Assembly (NCBI GenBank): GCA_039586365.1
Contig: JBDHKN010000030.1
Coordinates: forward strand, 1 to 63,273
Length of the DNA stretch: 63,273 bases
Source of the DNA: Gemmatimonadota bacterium
Lineage (GTDB): Bacteria; Gemmatimonadota; Gemmatimonadetes; Gemmatimonadales; GWC2-71-9
Direction: 5' to 3'
In this document: one piece after another, positions 1 to 50,309 of the stretch
Layout: each line of letters opens with the position of its first letter
How positions within the stretch are numbered: the stretch's first letter is position 1
Notes under the pieces: model-generated
Database searches by the model: none
The model's input: only the letters and a program-made list of their open reading frames with translations
What the model was told of the DNA's origin: nothing
Made by a program: the position numbers and the translations under genes

Positions 1-83
1 GCCTAACGCATGTTGAGAGCACGCCCCAAGCTGCTACCATGGAGTTGTCGAAGACCCATGGGTCACAGCAAGGAGCGGCTCTC

Positions 84-1148
84 ATGAAATGCATGACCAA
101 GTATGTGGCTTTAGATGTTCACCAGGCAACCACGGCGGCATCGGTGCGGGCCGAGGGTGGTCGGGTGCTGGCGCGGACGATTCTGCCTACCGAGGAAGCA
201 GCGATCGGGGAGTTGTTTCGGGGTCTGCGTGGTGCGATTCACGTTGCTTTCGAGGAAGGCACCCAAGCGCAGTGGCTGCACGATTTACTGGCCCCATTAG
301 TCGATCGGGTAGTCGTTTGCGACCGGCGCGGTGAGAAGCGTCAGGGCAACAAGGCTGATCGGGTCGACGCCGACGAGTTGTCGGAGTTGTTGCGTCGTGG
401 TGGACTGCGTGCGGTGTATCACGGCAGTTCCCAGCGTGCCGCTCTGAAGGAGTTGACCCGATCCTACCAGAACCTGGTGGAGGATTCCACGCGTGTGATG
501 CAGCGGTTGAAGGCGTTGTTTGGTGCCCGGGGCATCAAGACGCCCGGCACGCGCGTCTACCACCCTACTGAGCGGCTGCAATGGCTCGAGAAGTTACCGG
601 AGCGTGGGGCACGGTTTAGAGCGGAGACGTTGTACGCCGAACTGGACGTGTTGCGCGAGCTGCGTCCCAAGGCGAAGGCTGCGATGGTCGCCGAGGCGCG
701 GCGCGATCCGGCGTGGGCTCTGTTGCAGACGATACCGTTCTTTGGGCCGGTGCGTGTTGCATTGCTTCTGGCCACGATGCAGACACCCTGGCGGTTTAGG
801 ACGAAGCGGAATCTGTGGGCCTTCGCAGGGCTGGCGGTGGTGACCAAGACCAGCGCCGAGTACGAGTTCGTCGCTGGGAGGCCGGTGCGCCGACGGCGTG
901 CTCCGATGACTCGTGGTCTCAATCGCAATTACAACTGCGTGCTCAAAGACGTGTTCAAGGGTGGAGCTACAGCCGCCACGGCACAGCCTGGGCCGCTGCA
1001 GGACTTCTACCACGGTATGGTTGCGCGCGGCATGCGTGAGGAGCTGGCGCGGCTGACGCTCACCCGCAAGATCGCAGCCATCACGCTGCGCCTATGGAAG
1101 AGAGGAGAAAAGTACGATCCGACGAAGTTGACGACACAAGCGTTCTAG
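84..1148 (+). CDS. IS110 family transposase / bridge recombinase
   Basis: RuvC-like DEDD motifs YVALDVH, AFEEG and KADRVDA; C-terminal Transposase_20-like region (LQTIPFFG, WAFAGL..T.TS with candidate catalytic Ser). AAGGAG at 70-75 supports the ATG at 84 (ORF track starts at 39). Confidence 0.95.
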   Translation: MKCMTKYVALDVHQATTAASVRAEGGRVLARTILPTEEAAIGELFRGLRGAIHVAFEEGTQAQWLHDLLAPLVDRVVVCDRRGEKRQGNKADRVDADELSELLRRGGLRAVYHGSSQRAALKELTRSYQNLVEDSTRVMQRLKALFGARGIKTPGTRVYHPTERLQWLEKLPERGARFRAETLYAELDVLRELRPKAKAAMVAEARRDPAWALLQTIPFFGPVRVALLLATMQTPWRFRTKRNLWAFAGLAVVTKTSAEYEFVAGRPVRRRRAPMTRGLNRNYNCVLKDVFKGGATAATAQPGPLQDFYHGMVARGMREELARLTLTRKIAAITLRLWKRGEKYDPTKLTTQAF

Positions 1149-1150
1149 CA

Positions 1151-1356
1151 CCGGGACACGCGAGTCAGCGGCGTAGGCCGAGTTATCCCGCCAAGGCTCC
1201 GCGTTCCGGGACGATGGTGCGAGGGGCAGTCTCCACAGGGTCGTTGGCCCGGCCAGCAGTCAGTCGAGGCACTCGCCTAACTCTAGGCCCTCTCGCTGAA
1301 CCAAAGGAAGCGTCAGGCCGGCTCCGTGCCGAGTCTCAGATAGAACCATGGTTCGC
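1151..1356 (+). ncRNA. putative bridge RNA / seekRNA (5' stem-loop, target-binding loop, donor-binding loop)
   Basis: Hand-folded stems: 1151-1209; 1219-1227 with 1287-1296; 1298-1303 with 1349-1354. The internal loops contain CAGGGTCGTT and GCCTAAC (target matches) and AAGCGT and ATAGAAC (donor matches). Confidence 0.8.
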
Positions 1357-1535
1357 AGTTTGAGAACACACAGCCTGCAAACGTCCAGTCGGATCGAGAG
1401 TCGAAGCGAGGTGACCAATGCAAAAAAAGACTGCGAAGCAGGCCACACAGCGCCGGACTGACTCGCCCGCTAAGAAGTCGGGGCTGATTGCAAAGGGGAA
1501 AAACTCTCAGAGATCAGCAACGACGAAGTCTGCCC

Positions 1536-1557
1536 TTGACAATCGCTCTCATAGAAC
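1536..1557 (+). promoter_or_regulatory. -35 half of the IS circle-junction promoter
   Basis: Perfect TTGACA at 1536-1541. Joining the ends at the AAC core places CATGTT (9-14) 17 nt downstream as a -10 element. Confidence 0.65.
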
Positions 1558-1572
1558 GACTCTGCGCATAAG
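1555..1572 (-). other. remnant of an attC-like site (R'/L' arm) interrupted by the IS; the other part is at 1-7
   Basis: Removing the IS gives gcctaac-gactct-gcgcataag, which parallels gtctaac-ggatcg-gcgcctaag of the intact attC at 2357. Confidence 0.65.
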
Positions 1573-1585
1573 AATGGGATGAGAA

Positions 1586-1674
1586 GGGCCAACCTCTGGT
1601 GGCGGGCTTACCATAGAATGGCGTTCCAAAGTGATTAACGGACTCGAAGTCCAATCAGACCCAGAGGTTGGCCC
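1586..1674. repeat. perfect 14-bp inverted repeat GGGCCAACCTCTGG / CCAGAGGTTGGCCC
   Basis: Arms at 1586-1599 and 1661-1674; the right arm contains GAGG just before an ATG at 1676. Confidence 0.8.
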
Positions 1675-1725
1675 CATGACAGATGCACAGGTGATTTCCG
1701 CAAGAATGACGGAGTGGTTGTCGAA

Positions 1726-2241
1726 CTACATGGCGTCATCGAATTCATCCCTGTATCGCGCTATGCCGCCAGCCTTGGGCAAGACAGCGCTATCAAACAC
1801 GACAACCATGAATGCCTCATCCTCATCCGGAATCCCCTCCCATTGACTGATGAGCTGATACTTCGATGCAAGCTCGAAGCCAAAGCGTGGGTAGTAATCA
1901 GGATGTCCCAAAACAATGACGAATGGACAACCAGACCGACGTAGGTGCTCGAGCCCGTGGCGGACAAGTTGAGATCCAATTCCCTTTCGCTGGTGAGATG
2001 GCAAAACCGCCATCGGCGCCAGACCCATGCCAGCTACACCGCAACCTTCAACGGTCACCTGGGTGAACAATATGTGCCCGACAACGGTGTAATCTTCGAC
2101 GGCGACAAAGGCAAGGTAATCCTTGCAGCTGAGTCGGAGCTTATCCACGACAGTGGCTTCCGGACCGTTGTCAAATGCAGCCAGGTTCAGCTGGTGCACG
2201 GCATCCCGATCCTTCGATTCTTCTCTGCGGATTTCGATCAT
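1726..2241 (-). CDS. GNAT family N-acetyltransferase (YhbS-like), cassette-like gene
   Basis: MIEIRREE start, GLAPMAVLPSHQRKGIGSQL acetyl-CoA motif A, VLGHPDYYPRFGF. Lies between two attC-like sequences in the same orientation. Confidence 0.92.
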   Translation of the reverse strand: MIEIRREESKDRDAVHQLNLAAFDNGPEATVVDKLRLSCKDYLAFVAVEDYTVVGHILFTQVTVEGCGVAGMGLAPMAVLPSHQRKGIGSQLVRHGLEHLRRSGCPFVIVLGHPDYYPRFGFELASKYQLISQWEGIPDEDEAFMVVVFDSAVLPKAGGIARYRDEFDDAM

Positions 2242-2356
2242 CAGTAGGTGCTCAGCATAAAAGCGGATAGCGACCCTGCGCACCGGCGTCGCCACCGCAG
2301 ATCGCTAGAAGCCACTGCATCGGACACTGGCGTTTGGCTCTGCTGATCCCTGCGCG

Positions 2357-2489
2357 GTCTAACGGATCGGCGCCTAAGCTGCAGGCGACTCAGCACCAGC
2401 TGCTGCAAACTCAGTCGTTCTATTGATTCCACCATACGATCAAACCAATCAAATCACCACCGCCTGGCAGCTTCAGCCGCCTGTTAGCC
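2357..2489 (-). other. attC-like integron cassette recombination site (133 bp)
   Basis: On the minus strand: R'' GGCTAAC, L'' GCTGAAGC ... L' GCTTAGG, R' GTTAGAC. Arms CT(G)AAGCTGC(C)AGGCG and CGCCTGCAGCTTAG pair with two extrahelical bases. Confidence 0.8.
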
Positions 2490-2670
2490 TGCTACCTACA
2501 GGATTATCTTCGTTATCGAACGCGACGCGGACACTGGCCTCTTCGTAGGGTACGTACCTGGCTGGAAAGGTGCCCATTCCCAGGGAGCTTCCGTCGACGA
2601 GCTCCTCGCGAACTTGGCCGAAGTCGTCAAGATGCTTCTGGAGGATGGTGAACCAGCACGAGAGACGCAC
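2488..2670 (+). pseudogene. HicB-like (UPF0150) antitoxin lacking a start codon
   Basis: Frame reads ATYRIIFVIERDADTGLFVGYVPGWKGAHSQGASVDELLANLAEVVKMLLEDGEP; in-frame TAG at 2485 and no ATG before the domain. Confidence 0.75.
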
Positions 2671-2677
2671 GACAGCA

Positions 2678-2727
2678 AACTCGCTGCAATCACGCTGCGA
2701 CTGTGGAAGAAAGGAGAGCGCTACAAT
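2678..2727 (+). pseudogene. C-terminal relic of a second IS110 transposase
   Basis: KLAAITLRLWKKGERY versus KIAAITLRLWKRGEKY in the intact transposase (~1068-1116). Confidence 0.75.
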
Positions 2728-2877
2728 TCACCCTATAGCAGGGCCTTGCAGCAGTTCGAGGGACGACGCAAAACCCCACTCCAGCCGCTCGACTACCCCG
2801 ATGACACCGCACATACTTGGGTTGGGTGGATTCAAATTCCTATGCGGATCGGTCTGAGCGCAGTCAGACCAAACGTT

Positions 2878-5376
2878 TTAGCCCTTCGGCCTCAGCAGTT
2901 CCTGAAACGGCGGGTAATCTCGCACCGACTCGAAGTCCATATCTTTGTGTAGCCAAATCCCATACGCGAGGCCATCCCGAAACGCGTCACGCAACAGGCG
3001 TACAGCTTCCTCACGTTCTCCAAGCACAACTGCAATTCGCGCGCGCCAACGCGTGTGGTTCCCGAACAGGTAGGGGCGATCGAGCGAAGCGAGGTCCGCA
3101 CTGATTCGTTGCGCCGCCTCACGGTTGCCGAGCCGCGCCTCGGTAACGCCGAGGAATCCCACCAGGCCCAGCCTGTCCGGGTACTTAGTAACCAGTATCT
3201 CCAGCAGAGCATGCGCCTCGGACCAACGTTCTGCCCAGTACAGAGTCTGCGCTTCATTGAACCCGCGGCTTCTGCCCGGGACTCCTTCGTTTGGATGCGC
3301 TTCGAACCACGTCAATGCGCGGTCTATCGCGTCCCTGTACGCTCCCAAGTGGCCGTGCGCTCGCAGCTCGGAAGCCGCCAACACGGGCCGCATCGCGTAG
3401 GAGAAACCAGGCGTGAGTGGGTGTGTGAGGCTCTCGTCGAGGAGCGCAAATACTTCATCGACTCGCCCGAGGGCTGCGAGGGCTCGCAACTCGTAGTCCA
3501 ATACCCCCAAGTGCGCCGGAAAGATCGCGCGCGCGCGTCGAGCCTCTCGCAACTCGCCGCGGTGATCGCCCAACATGTGGAGTGCTTCGGTCAGGTACGT
3601 CCAGTAGTACGGCCACTCCGCCAGCCATCCACTTTCGGGGTCCAAGCGATTCAATGCCTCCACCGCTTCTCGGGGACGGTTGGCGGAACGAGCGTCCAAG
3701 CCGTGTTGGTATTCCCACATCGATTTCGGCGCCTGCACCGCCAAGTCCCGCACGGTTTGGAGGGCCGCTTGCCGATTCCCGCGCAGCGTTGCTCGTAGCC
3801 AGTCCAACCAGAGCCGGTCATGGCCCGAGAGATGATCGCGCGACCTCGCGATCACACGAACCAACGAATCGGCTGCCGAGTGCTCTCCCAGGTTGAGGTA
3901 GGTCAGAGCCGCCCACAACAGGGACTGCACGAAGGCACTGTCGAGTGAATGCGCAGTGAAGTAGTAGTCCAACGCCTCCCGGAACTCGCCGCGCAGACGA
4001 CGCTCGCCACCTTCCATGTAGTTGCGGTAGGCCTCGAACGTGGGCACTGCACTCGATGAGCTGATTATGTCGGACAAATACGGATCGAATCTAGCGGCCA
4101 GGGACCCTGAAACTCGTGCCCGCAGCAACTCGAAAGCGCGCTCCGGCTCCGCCACCGGAGCACTCACCTGGCCAATACTGAACAGGATCTCCATGCGATC
4201 CGCGTCGGTCACCTCTGCACGGTACAGAAGACTGTCGCCCGAAAGCTGGTAGTCACCAGCAACGACAATGCCCGCACCCGTCGCCTCGGCGAGCACGCGT
4301 ATCGGGTTGGCACTCCCGACCGAGTTCATTTCGAATCGCACCGCCAACGTCGGTACCACGCTCACCAGCCCGGTCTCCTGAAGGCCGAGAGCTATCAAGT
4401 CCGCGGCCGCGAGTCCGTGCGCGTCGAGTGTGGAATCGCCCGTCAAGTTCGAGAACGGGGCAACAACCGCTCGGCGGGCATCCAGGGCAGTCCCCCGCGC
4501 GGCAATCACGACCCATATCATGGCAGCGAGGACCACGAACACCGACGTTGCCCAGGCGAAAGTAGATCGCCTCCTCGTTGAGCCGTAACCGCCGGGCTGC
4601 TCGCACCAGGCGTCCCCCGCCGTAGGCGGAGCCACTCGTGTCGACGGATACGGCGCCTTGCGGTCGCGTACGGCATCGACAACCGCCTTGGTCTCTGCCG
4701 CCGGTTCGAGTTCGTATTCGTCGGCCAACCTGCGCGCGAACTTCTCAAAGAACCCCACGGCCGCCGCCCGATCGCCCGCATCCGCAATGGCCTCGACGAA
4801 ACGCCGGACCTCGCTCTCGTCTGTCGGAACCAGCGCCAGCGCCTTCTGTGCCGTGCGCTCCGCATCCACCAAACGCCGATCCTCCAAGTGGCGGTGTGCC
4901 AAAACCCACGCTGCGCCCGCCGCAAGCTCCTTGAGGCGGGCGCGCTCGTCTTCCATCCACCGCTCGAACTGCGGCGATTCGGAGAGGTGAAATCCTGTCA
5001 ACAAATCGCCGCGATACAGTTCGAGGGCCTCGACCAGATTCCCGCTCTCGACCGCGTCCGCAAATGCCACAGCGTCACAGCTCACTAGCGCTGCATTCAG
5101 GGCGATCTCCTCATCGCCTCGCACCTCGACGACGCCCTCACCCAACTCCTGCCTGAGCCCGTACAACACCTGCCGAAGCGCATGCCGTGCACGGGCTTGA
5201 TCCAACTCGGGCCACAAAAGTGCAGCCACGGTGTCGCGCCGGTGGAATCCTATCGGAGAGGCGGTCGCAAGGAAGGTGAGCAATGCCGTCCATTTGGGGC
5301 GGGTGAGCGGCGCCGCCACCGATTTGCCATCGGACCCTAAAAGATCCAATGAACCCAGAACGCGGAATTCGATCAT
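2878..5376 (-). CDS. SARP/BTAD-domain transcriptional regulator with TM, TolB-like and TPR regions
   Basis: MIEFRVLGSLDL, RRDTVAALLWPELDQARARHALRQ, LYRGDLLTGF (wHTH+BTAD); TM helix; VVAPFSNLTGD TolB-like motif; TPR C-terminus ending PPFQELLRPKG. Confidence 0.88.
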   Translation of the reverse strand: MIEFRVLGSLDLLGSDGKSVAAPLTRPKWTALLTFLATASPIGFHRRDTVAALLWPELDQARARHALRQVLYGLRQELGEGVVEVRGDEEIALNAALVSCDAVAFADAVESGNLVEALELYRGDLLTGFHLSESPQFERWMEDERARLKELAAGAAWVLAHRHLEDRRLVDAERTAQKALALVPTDESEVRRFVEAIADAGDRAAAVGFFEKFARRLADEYELEPAAETKAVVDAVRDRKAPYPSTRVAPPTAGDAWCEQPGGYGSTRRRSTFAWATSVFVVLAAMIWVVIAARGTALDARRAVVAPFSNLTGDSTLDAHGLAAADLIALGLQETGLVSVVPTLAVRFEMNSVGSANPIRVLAEATGAGIVVAGDYQLSGDSLLYRAEVTDADRMEILFSIGQVSAPVAEPERAFELLRARVSGSLAARFDPYLSDIISSSSAVPTFEAYRNYMEGGERRLRGEFREALDYYFTAHSLDSAFVQSLLWAALTYLNLGEHSAADSLVRVIARSRDHLSGHDRLWLDWLRATLRGNRQAALQTVRDLAVQAPKSMWEYQHGLDARSANRPREAVEALNRLDPESGWLAEWPYYWTYLTEALHMLGDHRGELREARRARAIFPAHLGVLDYELRALAALGRVDEVFALLDESLTHPLTPGFSYAMRPVLAASELRAHGHLGAYRDAIDRALTWFEAHPNEGVPGRSRGFNEAQTLYWAERWSEAHALLEILVTKYPDRLGLVGFLGVTEARLGNREAAQRISADLASLDRPYLFGNHTRWRARIAVVLGEREEAVRLLRDAFRDGLAYGIWLHKDMDFESVRDYPPFQELLRPKG

Positions 5377-18625: not shown

Positions 18626-20551
18626 ATGGACAAGCGCAAACTAGCTGCGGCGAGGTCCACTGTCCTAGCGGTCGCCGTGATTCCTCTGGCTACAGGTATC
18701 GCCCGGCCGCAGAGTCAGTCGATCGATTTCAGTTCCGAGCGCTGGTCTCTAGTCGACGCTCAGATAGCCAACAGGTTTGGCAAGGAGTGTCTGTCGGGAA
18801 CCGCTTTTCTCAAGGACCTACAATTCCAGGATGGTGTGATCGAGGTGGACATCGCCGTCGACGGTACCCGCTCCTACCCTGGGATCATCTTCCGAATGCA
18901 GACGGAGGGGAACTACGAGCGCTTATACGTGCGGCCCCACAGGGCCGGCCTCTACCCGGACGCCATTCAGTACACGCCAGTGTTCAACCGCTTAGAAGGG
19001 TGGCAACTCTACAACGGGACGGGGTACACGGCTGCTGCTGAGCTACCGACCGGAGAGTGGATCCGTTTGAGACTGGAGGTAAAGGGGAGGCAGGCCCGTG
19101 TCTACCTGGGGACTAGAGCTTCTCCCGCCATGGTGATCACGGATCTGAAGCACGGAGTGAGCAGCGGAACCGTCGGGGTTTTAGGTCCTAAGAACGAGAC
19201 CGCCTGCTTCTCCAACTTCAGCTACACGCCGACGGCTGATCTGACATTCGGGCCGCCACCCACTCCCGAAACGCCCAGTGGAACTATCACGGACTGGGAA
19301 ATATCACGTCCATTCCCAGCCGAACGCGTCGACAGGGACTCGTATCCCGGCTTCTACACCATCTTCTTCGCGGACTGGCAAAAGGTGGACCCGGAAGCTA
19401 CTGGATTAGTCGATATAGCCAGATACACGGCGAGAAGCGGACCCGAGCCCGACCTCGTCATCGCCCGAACCGTGGTCAAGTCGGCCGAGGCGCAGAGCCT
19501 CAGGCTGTCCTTCGGCTACAGCGACGAGATCGACCTGTTCCTCAACGGCCGCAAGGTATTCGCTGGGAATAGCTCCTATCGCTCCCGAGACCCGTCGTTC
19601 CTGGGAGTTGTGGGACTGTATGACGCAATCAACCTGAGACTGGAGCGTGGTCTCAACGAAATCCTCCTAATGGTCACCGAGAGCTTCGGCGGCTGGGGCT
19701 TTATGGCGAGGGCAGACCGTGAGCTTCAGCCTCCGGTTGTGGATCACTCGCGTACCACGAGTGCGTGGGAGACACCGGATGCATTCCTCACACCAGAAAG
19801 CGTGCTGTACGATCCCGCACGGGATGTCGTCTACGTCACCAATTTCGATGCCCGGTGGTCGGAAACGACGGAATTCACGGGCTTCATCTCCAGACTCAAC
19901 TTGGACGGCGATATCGAAGAACTGCGATGGGTGGCTGACCTGAACGCCCCGACCGGGATGAGTATCCATGGCGCTAGGCTCTGGGTCGTGGAACGAGGCA
20001 ATCTGACAGAGATAGACCCGGATCGCGGCGTATTACTCCAAAGATACCCGATCTCTGGGTCGGAATTCCTCAACGATATCGCGATCGACTCGGCGGGATA
20101 CATCTACATATCAGACACCTCACCTTCATCACACACTGGAAGTCGGATCTTCCGGTTCAAGGATGGTGTGTCCGAGCTTTGGCTGGACAGTGAGCAAATC
20201 AGCAGAGCCAACGGATTGTTCATCCATGGCGACAAGCTCCTGGTCGGCAATTCAGGTGATGGTTTTCTCAAGTCGGTGGGACTGGGCGACAAGCACATCG
20301 CGGAGATAGCCTGCCTTGGTGGAGGAGTCTTGGACGGCATTAGAGTCGACAATCATGGCAGGTATCTGGTCTCTCACTGGAAAGGCCAGGTCTACGCCGT
20401 GTCGGGCTCCGGAGGAGTGGTCGAGGTCTTGGATACGATGGCGGCAGGAATGAACTCCGCGGATTTCGAGTACATTCCTGACCGAAACCTCCTGATCATA
20501 CCGACGTTCCTGGCCAACAAGGTTGCAGCGTATCGGTTGACCGAACAATAA
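18626..20551 (+). CDS. secreted protein: DUF1080/ConA-like domain fused to an SMP-30/gluconolactonase beta-propeller
   Basis: F.DG.IEVDI, NYE.LYVRPH and FSNF motifs, then PESVLYD, FLNDIAID, ANGL, DGI and SADF propeller motifs. Confidence 0.75.
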   Translation: MDKRKLAAARSTVLAVAVIPLATGIARPQSQSIDFSSERWSLVDAQIANRFGKECLSGTAFLKDLQFQDGVIEVDIAVDGTRSYPGIIFRMQTEGNYERLYVRPHRAGLYPDAIQYTPVFNRLEGWQLYNGTGYTAAAELPTGEWIRLRLEVKGRQARVYLGTRASPAMVITDLKHGVSSGTVGVLGPKNETACFSNFSYTPTADLTFGPPPTPETPSGTITDWEISRPFPAERVDRDSYPGFYTIFFADWQKVDPEATGLVDIARYTARSGPEPDLVIARTVVKSAEAQSLRLSFGYSDEIDLFLNGRKVFAGNSSYRSRDPSFLGVVGLYDAINLRLERGLNEILLMVTESFGGWGFMARADRELQPPVVDHSRTTSAWETPDAFLTPESVLYDPARDVVYVTNFDARWSETTEFTGFISRLNLDGDIEELRWVADLNAPTGMSIHGARLWVVERGNLTEIDPDRGVLLQRYPISGSEFLNDIAIDSAGYIYISDTSPSSHTGSRIFRFKDGVSELWLDSEQISRANGLFIHGDKLLVGNSGDGFLKSVGLGDKHIAEIACLGGGVLDGIRVDNHGRYLVSHWKGQVYAVSGSGGVVEVLDTMAAGMNSADFEYIPDRNLLIIPTFLANKVAAYRLTEQ

Positions 20552-41060: not shown

Positions 41061-42785
41061 TCAGAAGCGACGCTCGATTCTCAGAGTCCAGCGCACAGGC
41101 TCACCTTCCTGAAGGGCTTTGGCTACGTAGATGCCGGCAGCCCCGAATTCGATACCGGCACCAATGTCGAACTTGAGGGCACCGACGTCCTCCCCTTCGA
41201 GCCACCCGGCTCCGGCGTTGCTGAAGAGGACAACTGTCGGTCCATCGAACCAGAACCAGCCATCCCAATCCCAGAAGTCAGACTCTGGATGCGGCTCGGG
41301 CTGCAACCAAAAGTCGTCCTCGAACCAATCGAACCCGACATCTCCCCGGTACTCCGCTTGAAACAGCAACACATGGTCGCACAGACCCGGCAGTGACGAA
41401 TCGATAACAGCCTCGTTGCAGGCGAAGGCTCGAAAGGAGTAACCGTTCATCGGATCAGGTCCGCCCAGTGAATACCGTCGCTGAATGGGGAGCGGATCAC
41501 GACCCAGCGTCCCGGCCCAGAACCCTCGCAACCTCAACTGCCCACCCCAGTCGACACGCTGGTAAAGTCGTATATCCAACAGTCCTCGGTCCCAGGTGTA
41601 AGACTGCAGGGGGAGTGGCTCTCGCACCAACGGCGGAAGCGGTCGTGGAACGATGTCTGCGCCGATTCCACGATCCCACTGGATGCGCAACAAGACGCCT
41701 GAACGCCGCGAGCGATACAAACGTCTCGAGTCGAATTCGGCCATTGCCGATATGAGCGTGAACTCTCCCTCATCGATCGTAGGGTTGGGACGCCATTCCT
41801 CATCCCTGCGAAACAGTGTCCAAGGATCCCGGCTAGCAATTGAATGCTCTTCAACCTGGGCGACCTCTCCGGAAAGACGCACACCGGGCGCCGGTTCGAT
41901 CGTGACAAAGCCGGCCATTCCGCGCTGCAGGAAGTAGTCGCGGTAATCGCGATGCCATAGGAAGGTTGCCCAACCAACCTCGTTGAGTTGGAGCGGCCAA
42001 TCCTGCATGGGAGCGACCACATCGAAGTAGCGGCCGCCCAACGTGAGATTCCGAGTGCGGCCGAACCGGATGCTGGCATCGACGTTGTACCCGATGTCTT
42101 CACGGGACACATCGTGATCTTCGGAAAAGACCTCATCCAGTTCGCCTGCGGTCCGAAAGACTCCGTAGCCACGGATTCGCGCGCGTACGTCTCTGCTCCG
42201 CCACTCAAGCTTTGCACCTAACCTGAGTGGGAGTCCTTCCACCCGGTTGTACGTGCCCCCCGGATCGAGCAGCAATGAGAAGCGGCTGCGGACCGGATAT
42301 CGAGCTCGTCTGCGCGGTTGCTGCTCGCGAGGCGGTGGCACGACCAACGCAAGCCGATCACCCAAGAGACGCACATTCGCCCGTTCACTGTAGCGCCTGA
42401 GGCCACCGCCGACGTAGGCACCTTCTTCGTCGAGCAGCAGGCCACCTAGCACCAACACGTCTCCTGCGATCTCCGCGCCCGAGCGGATCTCGACATCCGC
42501 GTTAATCGCCACGAGATCACCCTCGATCACACCATCCACCACCAACGGGCCATTCAGCACCGCGACGTTGCCGGCGTACCGCGAGCCGCGCTCCATGGTG
42601 AGTGCGCCGATCACCCTGGTCGTCGCGGGACGGTTGAAGAAATCGACCGCCCACTGTTCGATCCACGATACCCGGGATGGTTCCTGCCCTGGACGGACTA
42701 CCACCACGGTGTCTTGGCCAGCCATACCGCGCTGGACCGAGGTGAACAGCAGGACTCCAAGGACCAGGGGGCGTAACGCCAACAT
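41061..42785 (-). CDS. outer-membrane protein: bactofilin-like beta-helix plus Omp85/BamA-like barrel
   Basis: GNVAVLNG.L.VDG.IEGDLVAINAD repeats; YNRVEGL; LGGP..M.GY lid motif; C-terminal Phe. Confidence 0.72.
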   Translation of the reverse strand: MLALRPLVLGVLLFTSVQRGMAGQDTVVVVRPGQEPSRVSWIEQWAVDFFNRPATTRVIGALTMERGSRYAGNVAVLNGPLVVDGVIEGDLVAINADVEIRSGAEIAGDVLVLGGLLLDEEGAYVGGGLRRYSERANVRLLGDRLALVVPPPREQQPRRRARYPVRSRFSLLLDPGGTYNRVEGLPLRLGAKLEWRSRDVRARIRGYGVFRTAGELDEVFSEDHDVSREDIGYNVDASIRFGRTRNLTLGGRYFDVVAPMQDWPLQLNEVGWATFLWHRDYRDYFLQRGMAGFVTIEPAPGVRLSGEVAQVEEHSIASRDPWTLFRRDEEWRPNPTIDEGEFTLISAMAEFDSRRLYRSRRSGVLLRIQWDRGIGADIVPRPLPPLVREPLPLQSYTWDRGLLDIRLYQRVDWGGQLRLRGFWAGTLGRDPLPIQRRYSLGGPDPMNGYSFRAFACNEAVIDSSLPGLCDHVLLFQAEYRGDVGFDWFEDDFWLQPEPHPESDFWDWDGWFWFDGPTVVLFSNAGAGWLEGEDVGALKFDIGAGIEFGAAGIYVAKALQEGEPVRWTLRIERRF

Positions 42786-49223: not shown

Positions 49224-50309
49224 CTAGCGGCCGATCCTCACCGGTAGCCGCTTCCCTCCCCAGGTACCAACTGGACCGTCAAACACACCGGCGCACTGTG
49301 TCCCGCAGGCGCTGCAGTGGCCGTCGCCAGTCAGATTCCATGCGTGGATGACGTACCAGTCCCGTGCGATCAAGGTCTGGCCGCACTTGTGGCAGAACGT
49401 GCTTCCCCCCGCGATATCGTGGACGTTGCCGGTATATGCGTGCCGGACCCCGTTCTCGATCGCGATCTCACGCGCTCTGCTGAGGGTGCTGATTGGTGTG
49501 GGTGGGAGATCCAACATCTTCCAGTCAGGGTGAAACGCCGTGAAATGGAGGGGCACATCGGAACCGAGGTTCTCTACCACCCAGCGTGTCATCTCGTCGA
49601 GTTCGGCATGCGAATCGTTCTTGCCGGGAATGAGCAGTGTCGTCAATTCGAACCATACGTTTGTTTCATGCTTCAGGTAGACTAGCGTGTCGAGCACAGG
49701 CTGGAGGTGCCCGTTGGAGAGCTCCCAGTAGAACTCCTCAGTAAAGGCCTTCAGGTCGACATTTGCGGCGTCCATATGACGATAGAACTCCCGCCGAGGC
49801 TCGTCACATACGTAACCGGCCGTCACCGCAACATTCTTGATGCCACGTGCCCGACAGGCCCGTGCAACGTCAATAGCGTACTCATGAAAGATGACCGGAT
49901 CGTTGTACGTGTACGCGACGCTGCGGCATCCCAGCCGTTCGGCGGTTGCAGCAAGTGCCTCTGGAGAGGCCGCATCTGCGAGCGTATCTGTTTCGCGCGA
50001 CTTGCTGATATCCCAGTTCTGGCAGAACTTGCATGCAAGATTGCACCCAGCCGTGCCGAAGGACAGAACCGGCGTGCCCGGGAGGAAGTGATTGAGGGGT
50101 TTCTTTTCGATGGGATCGACACAGAATCCACTCGATCTGCCGTACGTGGTCAGGACCACCTGATCGTCTTGACACATGCGCACGAAACACATGCCGCGTT
50201 GGCCATCACGCAGCTTGCAGAAACGTGGGCAGAGGTCGCACTGGACCCGCCCGTCGTCGATGCGGTGCCAGTATTTGGTCGGGACTACCGATTCCGCCGT
50301 CTCCAGCAT
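49224..50309 (-). CDS. amrS: AmmeMemoRadiSam system radical SAM enzyme
   Basis: CDLCPRFC..C, DPIEKKPL.HF.PG, CNLACKFCQNWDIS, YTYNDP, FHPD and C-terminal CxxC pairs. Confidence 0.92.
   Translation of the reverse strand: MLETAESVVPTKYWHRIDDGRVQCDLCPRFCKLRDGQRGMCFVRMCQDDQVVLTTYGRSSGFCVDPIEKKPLNHFLPGTPVLSFGTAGCNLACKFCQNWDISKSRETDTLADAASPEALAATAERLGCRSVAYTYNDPVIFHEYAIDVARACRARGIKNVAVTAGYVCDEPRREFYRHMDAANVDLKAFTEEFYWELSNGHLQPVLDTLVYLKHETNVWFELTTLLIPGKNDSHAELDEMTRWVVENLGSDVPLHFTAFHPDWKMLDLPPTPISTLSRAREIAIENGVRHAYTGNVHDIAGGSTFCHKCGQTLIARDWYVIHAWNLTGDGHCSACGTQCAGVFDGPVGTWGGKRLPVRIGR

Follow-up and report, generated by a model that had tools for sequence, protein, structure and literature searches.

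An IS1111-type element from a Gemmatimonadota bacterium with a putative bridge RNA whose guides match the R' box of integron attC sites

The closest described counterparts of the element investigated here are insertion sequences of the IS1111 group that reside in attC sites, such as ISKpn4, ISPst6, ISPa21, ISPa25 and ISPpu25, whose original descriptions are reportedly those by Tetu and Holmes from 2008 and by Post and Hall from 2009. Guidance by a seekRNA was shown for two of them, ISKpn4 and ISPst6, in 2024 (Siddiquee et al., PMC11187229), and the proposal of a preliminary description of the present locus, that it would provide a new mechanism for attC tropism, is not borne out since RNA-guided targeting of these sites is already published in that work. 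Elements of the IS1111 group combine a short left end with a long non-coding region downstream of the gene (PMC11187229; PMC11208160) and contain subterminal repeats for which a length of 7–17 bp was described (PMC11208160). In the ISKpn4 group, insertion is antisense and close to the 5' end of attC (PMC3001079), at a position 6 bp after the AAC of the R'' box (PMC13604230, Table 1), which we also obtained by computation. A second reference is provided by IS621 and ISCro4 (Durrant et al., 2024, PMC11208160; PDB 8wt6, 8wt9, 9t56), whose RNA consists of a 5' stem-loop, a target loop and a donor loop, with two guides per loop that overlap on a core of 2 nt. Finally, group IIC-attC introns (Leon et al., 2010, PMC3001079) resemble the present element as mobile elements that land on the bottom strand of attC.

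The locus is located in the window, the entire stretch of 63,273 nucleotides that was analysed (GCA_039586365.1, contig JBDHKN010000030.1), whose positions 8–1557 constitute an intact IS110-family element of the IS1111-type layout with a putative bridge or seek RNA gene behind the transposase (Table 1). Because the contig begins at window position 1, the left flank of the element comprises only 7 nt. Its non-coding regions measure 76 bp on the left and 409 bp on the right, with the long side downstream of the gene. Besides this downstream region, it shares with the IS1111-attC group the guides to both strands, the 5' placement of the guide that would base-pair with the element's top strand, the presence of subterminal repeats and the insertion into attC antisense to the cassettes. 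With IS621 and ISCro4 it has in common the predicted fold of the recombinase, the described organization of the RNA, a left guide of 7+2 nt, a tolerated rG:dT pair and a predicted junction promoter, whereas it differs from both in the location of the RNA downstream of the gene, guide strands that are reversed relative to the gene, a GT (AC) instead of a CT core, a sequence identity of about 20%, a left donor guide that contains a conserved mismatch and an extra hairpin (residues 259–270) after the catalytic serine. We consider it highly probable that the element represents an IS1111-type RNA-guided recombinase system of a lineage that is separate from the published IS1111-attC group. Its mechanism is known, while lineage and insertion point are distinct.

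Table 1. Features of the element and its surroundings in window coordinates.
Feature	Position	Strand	Basis or remark
Left flank GCCTA (target half) and core AC (6–7)	1–7	+	reads GTTAGGC, attC R' box, on the - strand
Short left end: GCATGT 8–13 (donor half), inverted repeat TGAGAGC 14–20	8–83	+	end alignments
-10-like CATGTT of predicted circle-junction promoter	9–14	+	within left end
IS110-family DEDD recombinase, 354 aa, open frame	84–1148	+	PF01548 and PF02371 over cut-off
5' stem-loop of predicted bridge RNA; hairpin kept, sequence variable	1151–1209	+	folding z
Target-binding loop	1219–1296	+	outer stem 1219–1225/1290–1296; inner hairpin 1247–1253/1263–1270
Left target guide CAGGGTC and core GT	1236–1244	+	8/9 identical to - strand CAGAGTC-GT; ninth is a G:T wobble
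Right target guide GCCTA and core AC	1275–1281	+	identical to left flank
Donor-binding loop	1298–1354	+	outer stem 1298–1302/1350–1354; inner hairpin
Left donor guide AGGAAGC and GT	1305–1313	+	imperfect against left end: of 7 positions, 4 match and 1 is a wobble; A.A mismatch at -3 fixed across the family
Right donor guide ATAGA and core AC	1340–1346	+	identical to right end
Remainder of right non-coding end; moderate conservation, one small conserved hairpin	1355–1535	+	
Right end: -35 TTGACA 1536–1541, inverted repeat GCTCTCA 1545–1551, TAGA, core AC 1556–1557	1536–1557	+	
attC right-arm remnant, L' and spacer (...TTATGCG-CAGAGTC), other target half	1558–1572	-	motif ends C13 attC sites
138-bp segment between AAGAATG direct repeats, containing a perfect hairpin of 14 bp	1570–1707	.	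interrupts attC
GNAT acetyltransferase gene, cassette-like	1726–2295	-	
Intact-looking attC upstream of GNAT gene	2357–2489	-	z -1.82

A search for homologues with one genome per species confirmed 118 relatives, the best 80 of which were used for comparison. These best 80 of 118 show 51–87% identity to the window protein and originate mainly from Gemmatimonadota and Acidobacteriota. Together with the window they amount to 81 loci, where a left end was found in 76, a right end in 59 and a parsable target loop in 68, with one locus (L081) being excluded as a mis-called right end. The lineage is large: of 8,000 scored proteins, 5,254 reach E≤0.001, a number that includes distant IS110s.

The relationship to known systems was addressed at the level of the protein. 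The window recombinase is only 19–20% identical to the ISKpn4, ISPa21 and ISPpu25 proteins (plasmid copies), and its matches to IS5075-like proteins are either short or weak, whereas ISKpn4 shares 29–39% identity with the other listed IS110-family proteins, IS5075 among them. In a quick 29-row tree with long branches, the ISKpn4-type proteins group with IS5075 (99% SH-aLRT) and the family of the window forms its own long branch outside of this clade in a tree without IS1111A. A shared clade of the window's family and the ISKpn4 group was rejected (AU p=0.00027). Further differences from the IS1111-attC group concern the repeats of 7 bp, the hosts, which are mostly Gemmatimonadota and Acidobacteriota, and the non-coding regions, which look unrelated to those of the ISKpn4 group when compared by eye. 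A difference that matters concerns the insertion point: the ISKpn4 group enters attC at its 5' end and splits the hairpin, whereas in the lineage of the window entry occurs at the 3' end, at the AC/GT of R', with both L boxes and the crossover triplet staying in place. Whether such insertions freeze cassettes or ride with them is thus directly testable. The separate lineage and the different insertion point are, as judged from these comparisons, the more distinctive features of the element, and were overlooked in the preliminary description. It seems that the lineage arrived at integron recombination sites on its own, which suggests that RNA-guided insertion sequences have come upon attC at least twice, at different points of the site. 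Our literature search has found no IS110/IS1111 lineage inserting at R', but the original papers on the IS1111-attC group or the supplementary tables of Durrant et al. may list it. Similarly, a weak search with six short motifs of the ISfinder protein list in the supplement of Siddiquee et al. identified no clear member of the lineage, and the examined stretch of plasmid pB8, reportedly a carrier of an attC-inserted insertion sequence, contained no such insertion.

The assignment of the recombinase to the IS110 family is supported by two Pfam profiles, while its score of 113.9 bits for NF033542 is below the cut-off of 140 of this profile. In the alignment of homologues, the catalytic residues E57, D92 and D95 are invariant, D11 is found in at least 90% of the sequences and position 257 is occupied by either Ser or Thr, with Ser 257 of the window protein residing in a GL..TSA motif. 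A search of PDB chains by sequence with phmmer did not yield a match, but a predicted model with a pLDDT of 83.5 finds its best fold matches in the recombinases of IS621 (8wt9, E 5.8e-13) and ISCro4. The model also contains a β-hairpin and an Arg-rich stretch at residues 259–280, with about nine extra residues directly following the catalytic serine that are absent in ISKpn4-type proteins. For tool building, the lineage offers a large group of proteins with no solved relative that would be detectable by sequence and, as discussed below, with natural variation of the core, which bears on the constraint on this core in bridge recombinases.

The termini of the element are well defined by its homologues. 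Among the best 80 of 118 relatives, the ends align sharply as flank-AC/GCATGT-TGAGAGC on the left and GCTCTCA-TAGA-AC/flank on the right. The subterminal inverted repeat, whose 7 bp correspond to the lower limit of the range described for the IS1111 group (PMC11208160), is perfect in 44 of the 56 elements where both ends are defined, with 14 of these 44 carrying the paired change TGAAAGC/GCTTTCA, as expected for covariation. If the ends are joined, the TTGACA motif, which is present in 43 of 57 right ends, would be placed at a fixed spacing of 17 nt from a CATRTT or GATRTT box. In the linear element, a promoter scan revealed just one weak site (13–40). The sequencing runs listed for the sequence include no RNA data set, which is uninformative with respect to expression, and neither the circle junction nor an empty site was found among the contigs of 4 of the 20 listed runs. 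In three of these runs (X1, X2 and X4), contigs match the first 45 bp of the window, which include the flank and the left end, and then continue into one different sequence that perhaps belongs to a non-autonomous or variant element. We have also noticed two homologous elements (L031 and L046) that lack most or all of the guide-RNA region. Since L031 retains both ends, it could be moved in trans.

The region following the recombinase gene is predicted to fold into the three domains that had been claimed in the preliminary description, all of which appear in the fold of the single sequence, and the segments and letters identified there are exact: CAGGGTCGTT at 1236–1245, GCCTAAC at 1275–1281 repeating positions 1–7, and ATAGAAC at 1340–1346 repeating positions 1551–1557, with stems at 1219–1227/1287–1296 and 1298–1303/1349–1354. 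To these we add a helix (1229–1232/1285–1288) that closes the target loop. Also the proposed resemblance between both inner hairpins was recovered, that of the donor loop being laid out like its counterpart in the target loop. As an isolated molecule, the RNA of 212 nt shows no unusual stability (z -1.44, with 18 of 200 shuffles being equally good), and the subsequent 180 nt of the right end contain no folding signal (mean z -0.36, 5 of 59 homologues under -2), while the 5' stem-loop alone has a z of -3.1 and falls below -2 in 29 of 44 homologues. A conserved structure is present in the homologues. In an alignment of 43 sequences, hand-picked from 63 extracted regions by omission of incomplete, long-insertion and near-duplicate ones, the consensus contains 30 pairs, with 99.5% of the cells paired and compensatory changes in 15 of the 30. 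None of 500 shuffles reaches this consensus, which is not to be read as a probability because the structure was derived from the same alignment, and slid controls are paired to 32–46%. The comparison thus supports a two-loop bridge or seek RNA with target and donor loops, the strongest conservation being found in the donor loop. A search of positions 1–3000 against Rfam gave no match, which is uninformative for a new RNA.

Evidence for guidance stems from the covariation of guides and targets, which extends far above the level of shuffled pairings across homologous loci. On average, 5.71 of 7 positions of the left target guide match the right flank of the same locus, compared to 3.30 in shuffled pairings (n=56), and 4.73 of 5 positions of the right target guide match the left flank of the same locus, compared to 3.21 (n=63). 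This corresponds to a z of about 18, with none of 20,000 shuffles coming close, and the result is unchanged after collapse at 85% protein identity (n=42 and 49) and null in controls with swapped sides. Matching of the left guide spans positions -7 to -1 (39–48 of 56) and drops to chance level at -8 and -9 (11 and 9 of 56). The proposed left guide of 10 nt has to be shortened to 7 nt plus the following GT, as T1245 does not track the flank, being a C in 10 of 56 homologues. Among 35 right guides that deviate from the consensus, 25 equal their own flank exactly, and such deviating guides are scattered over a 70-row tree, which is unfinished and includes two frameshifted rows. The family offers a clean natural case of guide reprogramming that is legible in dozens of genomes. 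In four loci (L035, L036, L058 and L072), near-identical elements with one guide occupy four different sites, each matched imperfectly, which as read from these sequences shows the mismatch tolerance of the guide.

The same comparison defines the core. A core of three nucleotides (GTT/AAC), as initially proposed, is not compatible with the observation that 9 of 76 left flanks end with CAC, GAC or TAC instead of AAC and that in eight of these nine the non-A base recurs in the right target guide. The core thus consists of the two nucleotides AC/GT. All 59 right ends read ATAGAAC, whereas the invariance of AC at the left end is partly built into the analysis because the end-calling script demanded AC within two bases of the expected position; in the raw listing of left ends, AC is in register in nearly all rows.

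With respect to the donor loop, the right donor guide and the right end are both invariant in the window's family, which makes covariation impossible there. We also analysed a sister clade of about 39% protein identity (L134, corresponding to G003:C92, and L137–L216, for which 80 metagenome loci were kept of 275), whose members encode the same two-loop RNA but have other targets, which are AT-rich and unlike attC, and a longer left end of about 150 bp. In this clade, the right target guide matches at 4.17 of 5 positions compared to 2.35 (n=36), and the left target guide at 4.9 of 7 compared to 2.4 (n=30, rough register). The core can be read at the left flank, in both right guides (target and donor) and at the right end in 29 loci. 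All four places show AG in 25 of these and AA in two (L187 and L216), while the remaining two are discordant, differing at the right end only. The core thus varies naturally between AC, AG and AA among relatives, as far as sequences indicate, a feature that had previously been overlooked. The proposed assignment of the donor loop stands, with a right guide that is identical to the end in the window and covaries in the sister clade, and with a weak left guide. In the window's family, the latter ignores a GC-to-GG change at -2 (20 of 57 mismatched), its core GT is kept in 38 and varied in 19 of 57 cases, and at -3 its A faces a T of the donor in 54 of 57 loci, a mismatch that is equally fixed in the sister clade (36 of 36). 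At -5, changes in the left end of sister-clade elements are followed by the left guide (17/3/0/13; Fisher p 1e-6, uncorrected for kinship). With respect to potential handshake dinucleotides, one position of the target loop agrees with the base of the donor in 25 of 53 loci and other positions show no pattern.

The imperfect left donor guide with its varied core letters would be expected if the target loop alone (about 80 nt, 1219–1296) were the functional RNA, with the protein reading the ends by way of their subterminal repeats and the donor loop being accessory. Such a scenario is in line with the finding that short seekRNAs of 82–96 nt dominated pull-downs of ISEc11 and ISKpn4 and that the short RNA of ISEc11 was sufficient for movement (PMC11187229). 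We nevertheless regard it as rather unlikely, since the donor loop is the best-conserved part of the RNA, since its right guide changes with the right end between AC in the window's family and AG or AA in the sister clade and since its left guide follows the left end at -5 in the latter. Guidance by both loops thus remains our preferred interpretation.

What these guides select was proposed to be the R' box of attC, with the sequence GTTRRRY, which is supported across the homologues and by a cassette array of the host but applies only in half to the window's own site. Left flanks of homologues read GTTRRRY in 47 of 76 cases and right guides read RYYYAAC in 45 of 68. A complementary partner arm is detected at p<0.05 in 21 of 55 sites, where about three would be expected, with the other 34 being above this threshold. 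In the host assembly, contig C13 (1–20257) consists entirely of a cassette array, in which at least 11 attC sites were called and genes on the + strand are each followed by an attC, several of which end with ...GAAGCGCAGAGTCGTTAGRC. The array contains all four perfect 14-mer targets of the assembly (with wobble allowed), each an empty attC end, and 9 of the 26 sites with up to one mismatch. Gene direction in C13 and the asymmetry of the arms rule out R'' as target, and gene direction also fixes the orientation of these sites as R', with insertion being antisense to the cassettes. The direction of open reading frames around homologous sites weakly leans the same way (19/40 vs 11/40 and 9/16 vs 4/16). 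Since recombination by IntI takes place between A and C within the AAC of R' on the bottom strand (PMC5027507), the A-C step of its crossover coincides with the core of the element.

The preference for attC could alternatively originate from recognition of its folded single-stranded hairpin, or from the protein, with the match to the RNA being secondary, as the 7 nt of the left guide coincide exactly with the unpaired spacer of the R' arm and attC is retained as the site by most of the family across several phyla. This appears improbable in light of members whose guides do not correspond to attC and that are found in matching non-attC sites (8 of the 9 cases with a deviating base before AC). 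Moreover, no partner arm is detectable at the site of the window and at most homologous sites, so that a hairpin seems not to be needed, although such arms may have decayed after insertion. Passive matches that arose by chance or through the copying of flanking DNA into a non-functional end, for which the modest folding score of the entire region and the lack of an Rfam match might be invoked, are effectively refuted by the described covariation with its null controls, the compensatory changes in the stems and a shared architecture with different targets at 39% protein identity.

At the insertion site of the window, three tests for a full attC were negative (partner arm p 0.23–0.51). The 138-bp segment that interrupts the remnant has other flanks in contigs of three runs and is possibly the end of another mobile element. 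Close relatives in estuary and sediment contigs leave the window sequence after positions 1558 and 1564, which suggests other insertion sites. The family of the intact-looking attC upstream of the GNAT gene is repeated in four of seven same-genus genomes, and one copy (in G003) shares its contig with an integrase above the IntI cut-off, while no integron integrase above this cut-off was detected in the host assembly, which is 86% complete.

Sequence comparison has established the ends, the 2-nt core, the pairing of the guides with target and donor, the RNA stems and the class of targets, and the steps connecting them may be proposed by analogy to work on IS621 and IS1111 (PMC11208160; PMC11187229; PMC13626964). 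The ends would be joined upon excision to a circle as ...TAGA-AC-GCATGT..., creating a TTGACA-17-CATGTT promoter whose spacing is evident from the joined sequences and whose activity is presumed. This promoter would drive expression of the recombinase and of a downstream RNA of about 205 nt that binds to it. As indicated by covariation, pairing of the target loop would involve 7 bp and 5 bp on the two sides of the AC/GT core. In the donor loop, as suggested by covariation in the sister clade, pairing would be perfect with the right end (5 bp) and loose with the left end (7 bp), assisted by the subterminal repeats, which are probably read by the protein. Strand exchange at the core would follow the scheme of IS621, as judged from the fold and the catalytic residues, and involve the DEDD and Ser sites. 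Since most members are programmed for the R' box of attC and the adjoining unpaired spacer, insertion would proceed antisense at the A-C step of IntI and place the element at the very start of the next cassette, while a minority appears to be reprogrammed by guide mutation to non-attC sites.

This arrangement might be viewed as convergent parasitism of cassette boundaries, a possible but doubtful reading in which the element uses the AC of the invariant AAC triplet of IntI as its own core and rebuilds AAC/GTT by its ...AGA-AC end, so that the upstream attC would stay usable for IntI and the element would form the initial 1.55 kb of the following cassette and be excised and reshuffled together with this cassette, the wider clade then providing a natural series of bridge recombinases with AC, AG and AA cores. 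After insertion, the attC ends with GTTCTAT and the energy of its hairpin changes by at most 3.5 kcal/mol. Against this reading, the predicted pairing of AAC/GTT drops in 15 of 17 occupied sites, and by more than 0.3 in nine. The A preceding the core is also found in the sister clade, whose targets are not attC-like, and need thus not be an adaptation.

Traces of related elements are found elsewhere in the host assembly. On contig C9, a left-end stump with the same GCCTAAC flank (49249–49383) is located beside two attC-like ends and a second one is found at 42069, whereas C51 contains an internal relic (19011–19196). In the window itself, positions 2497–2717 contain a weakly matching HicB-like antitoxin fragment (E 0.0015, below the cut-off) that is fused to a 54-bp relic of the C-terminus of the same transposase.
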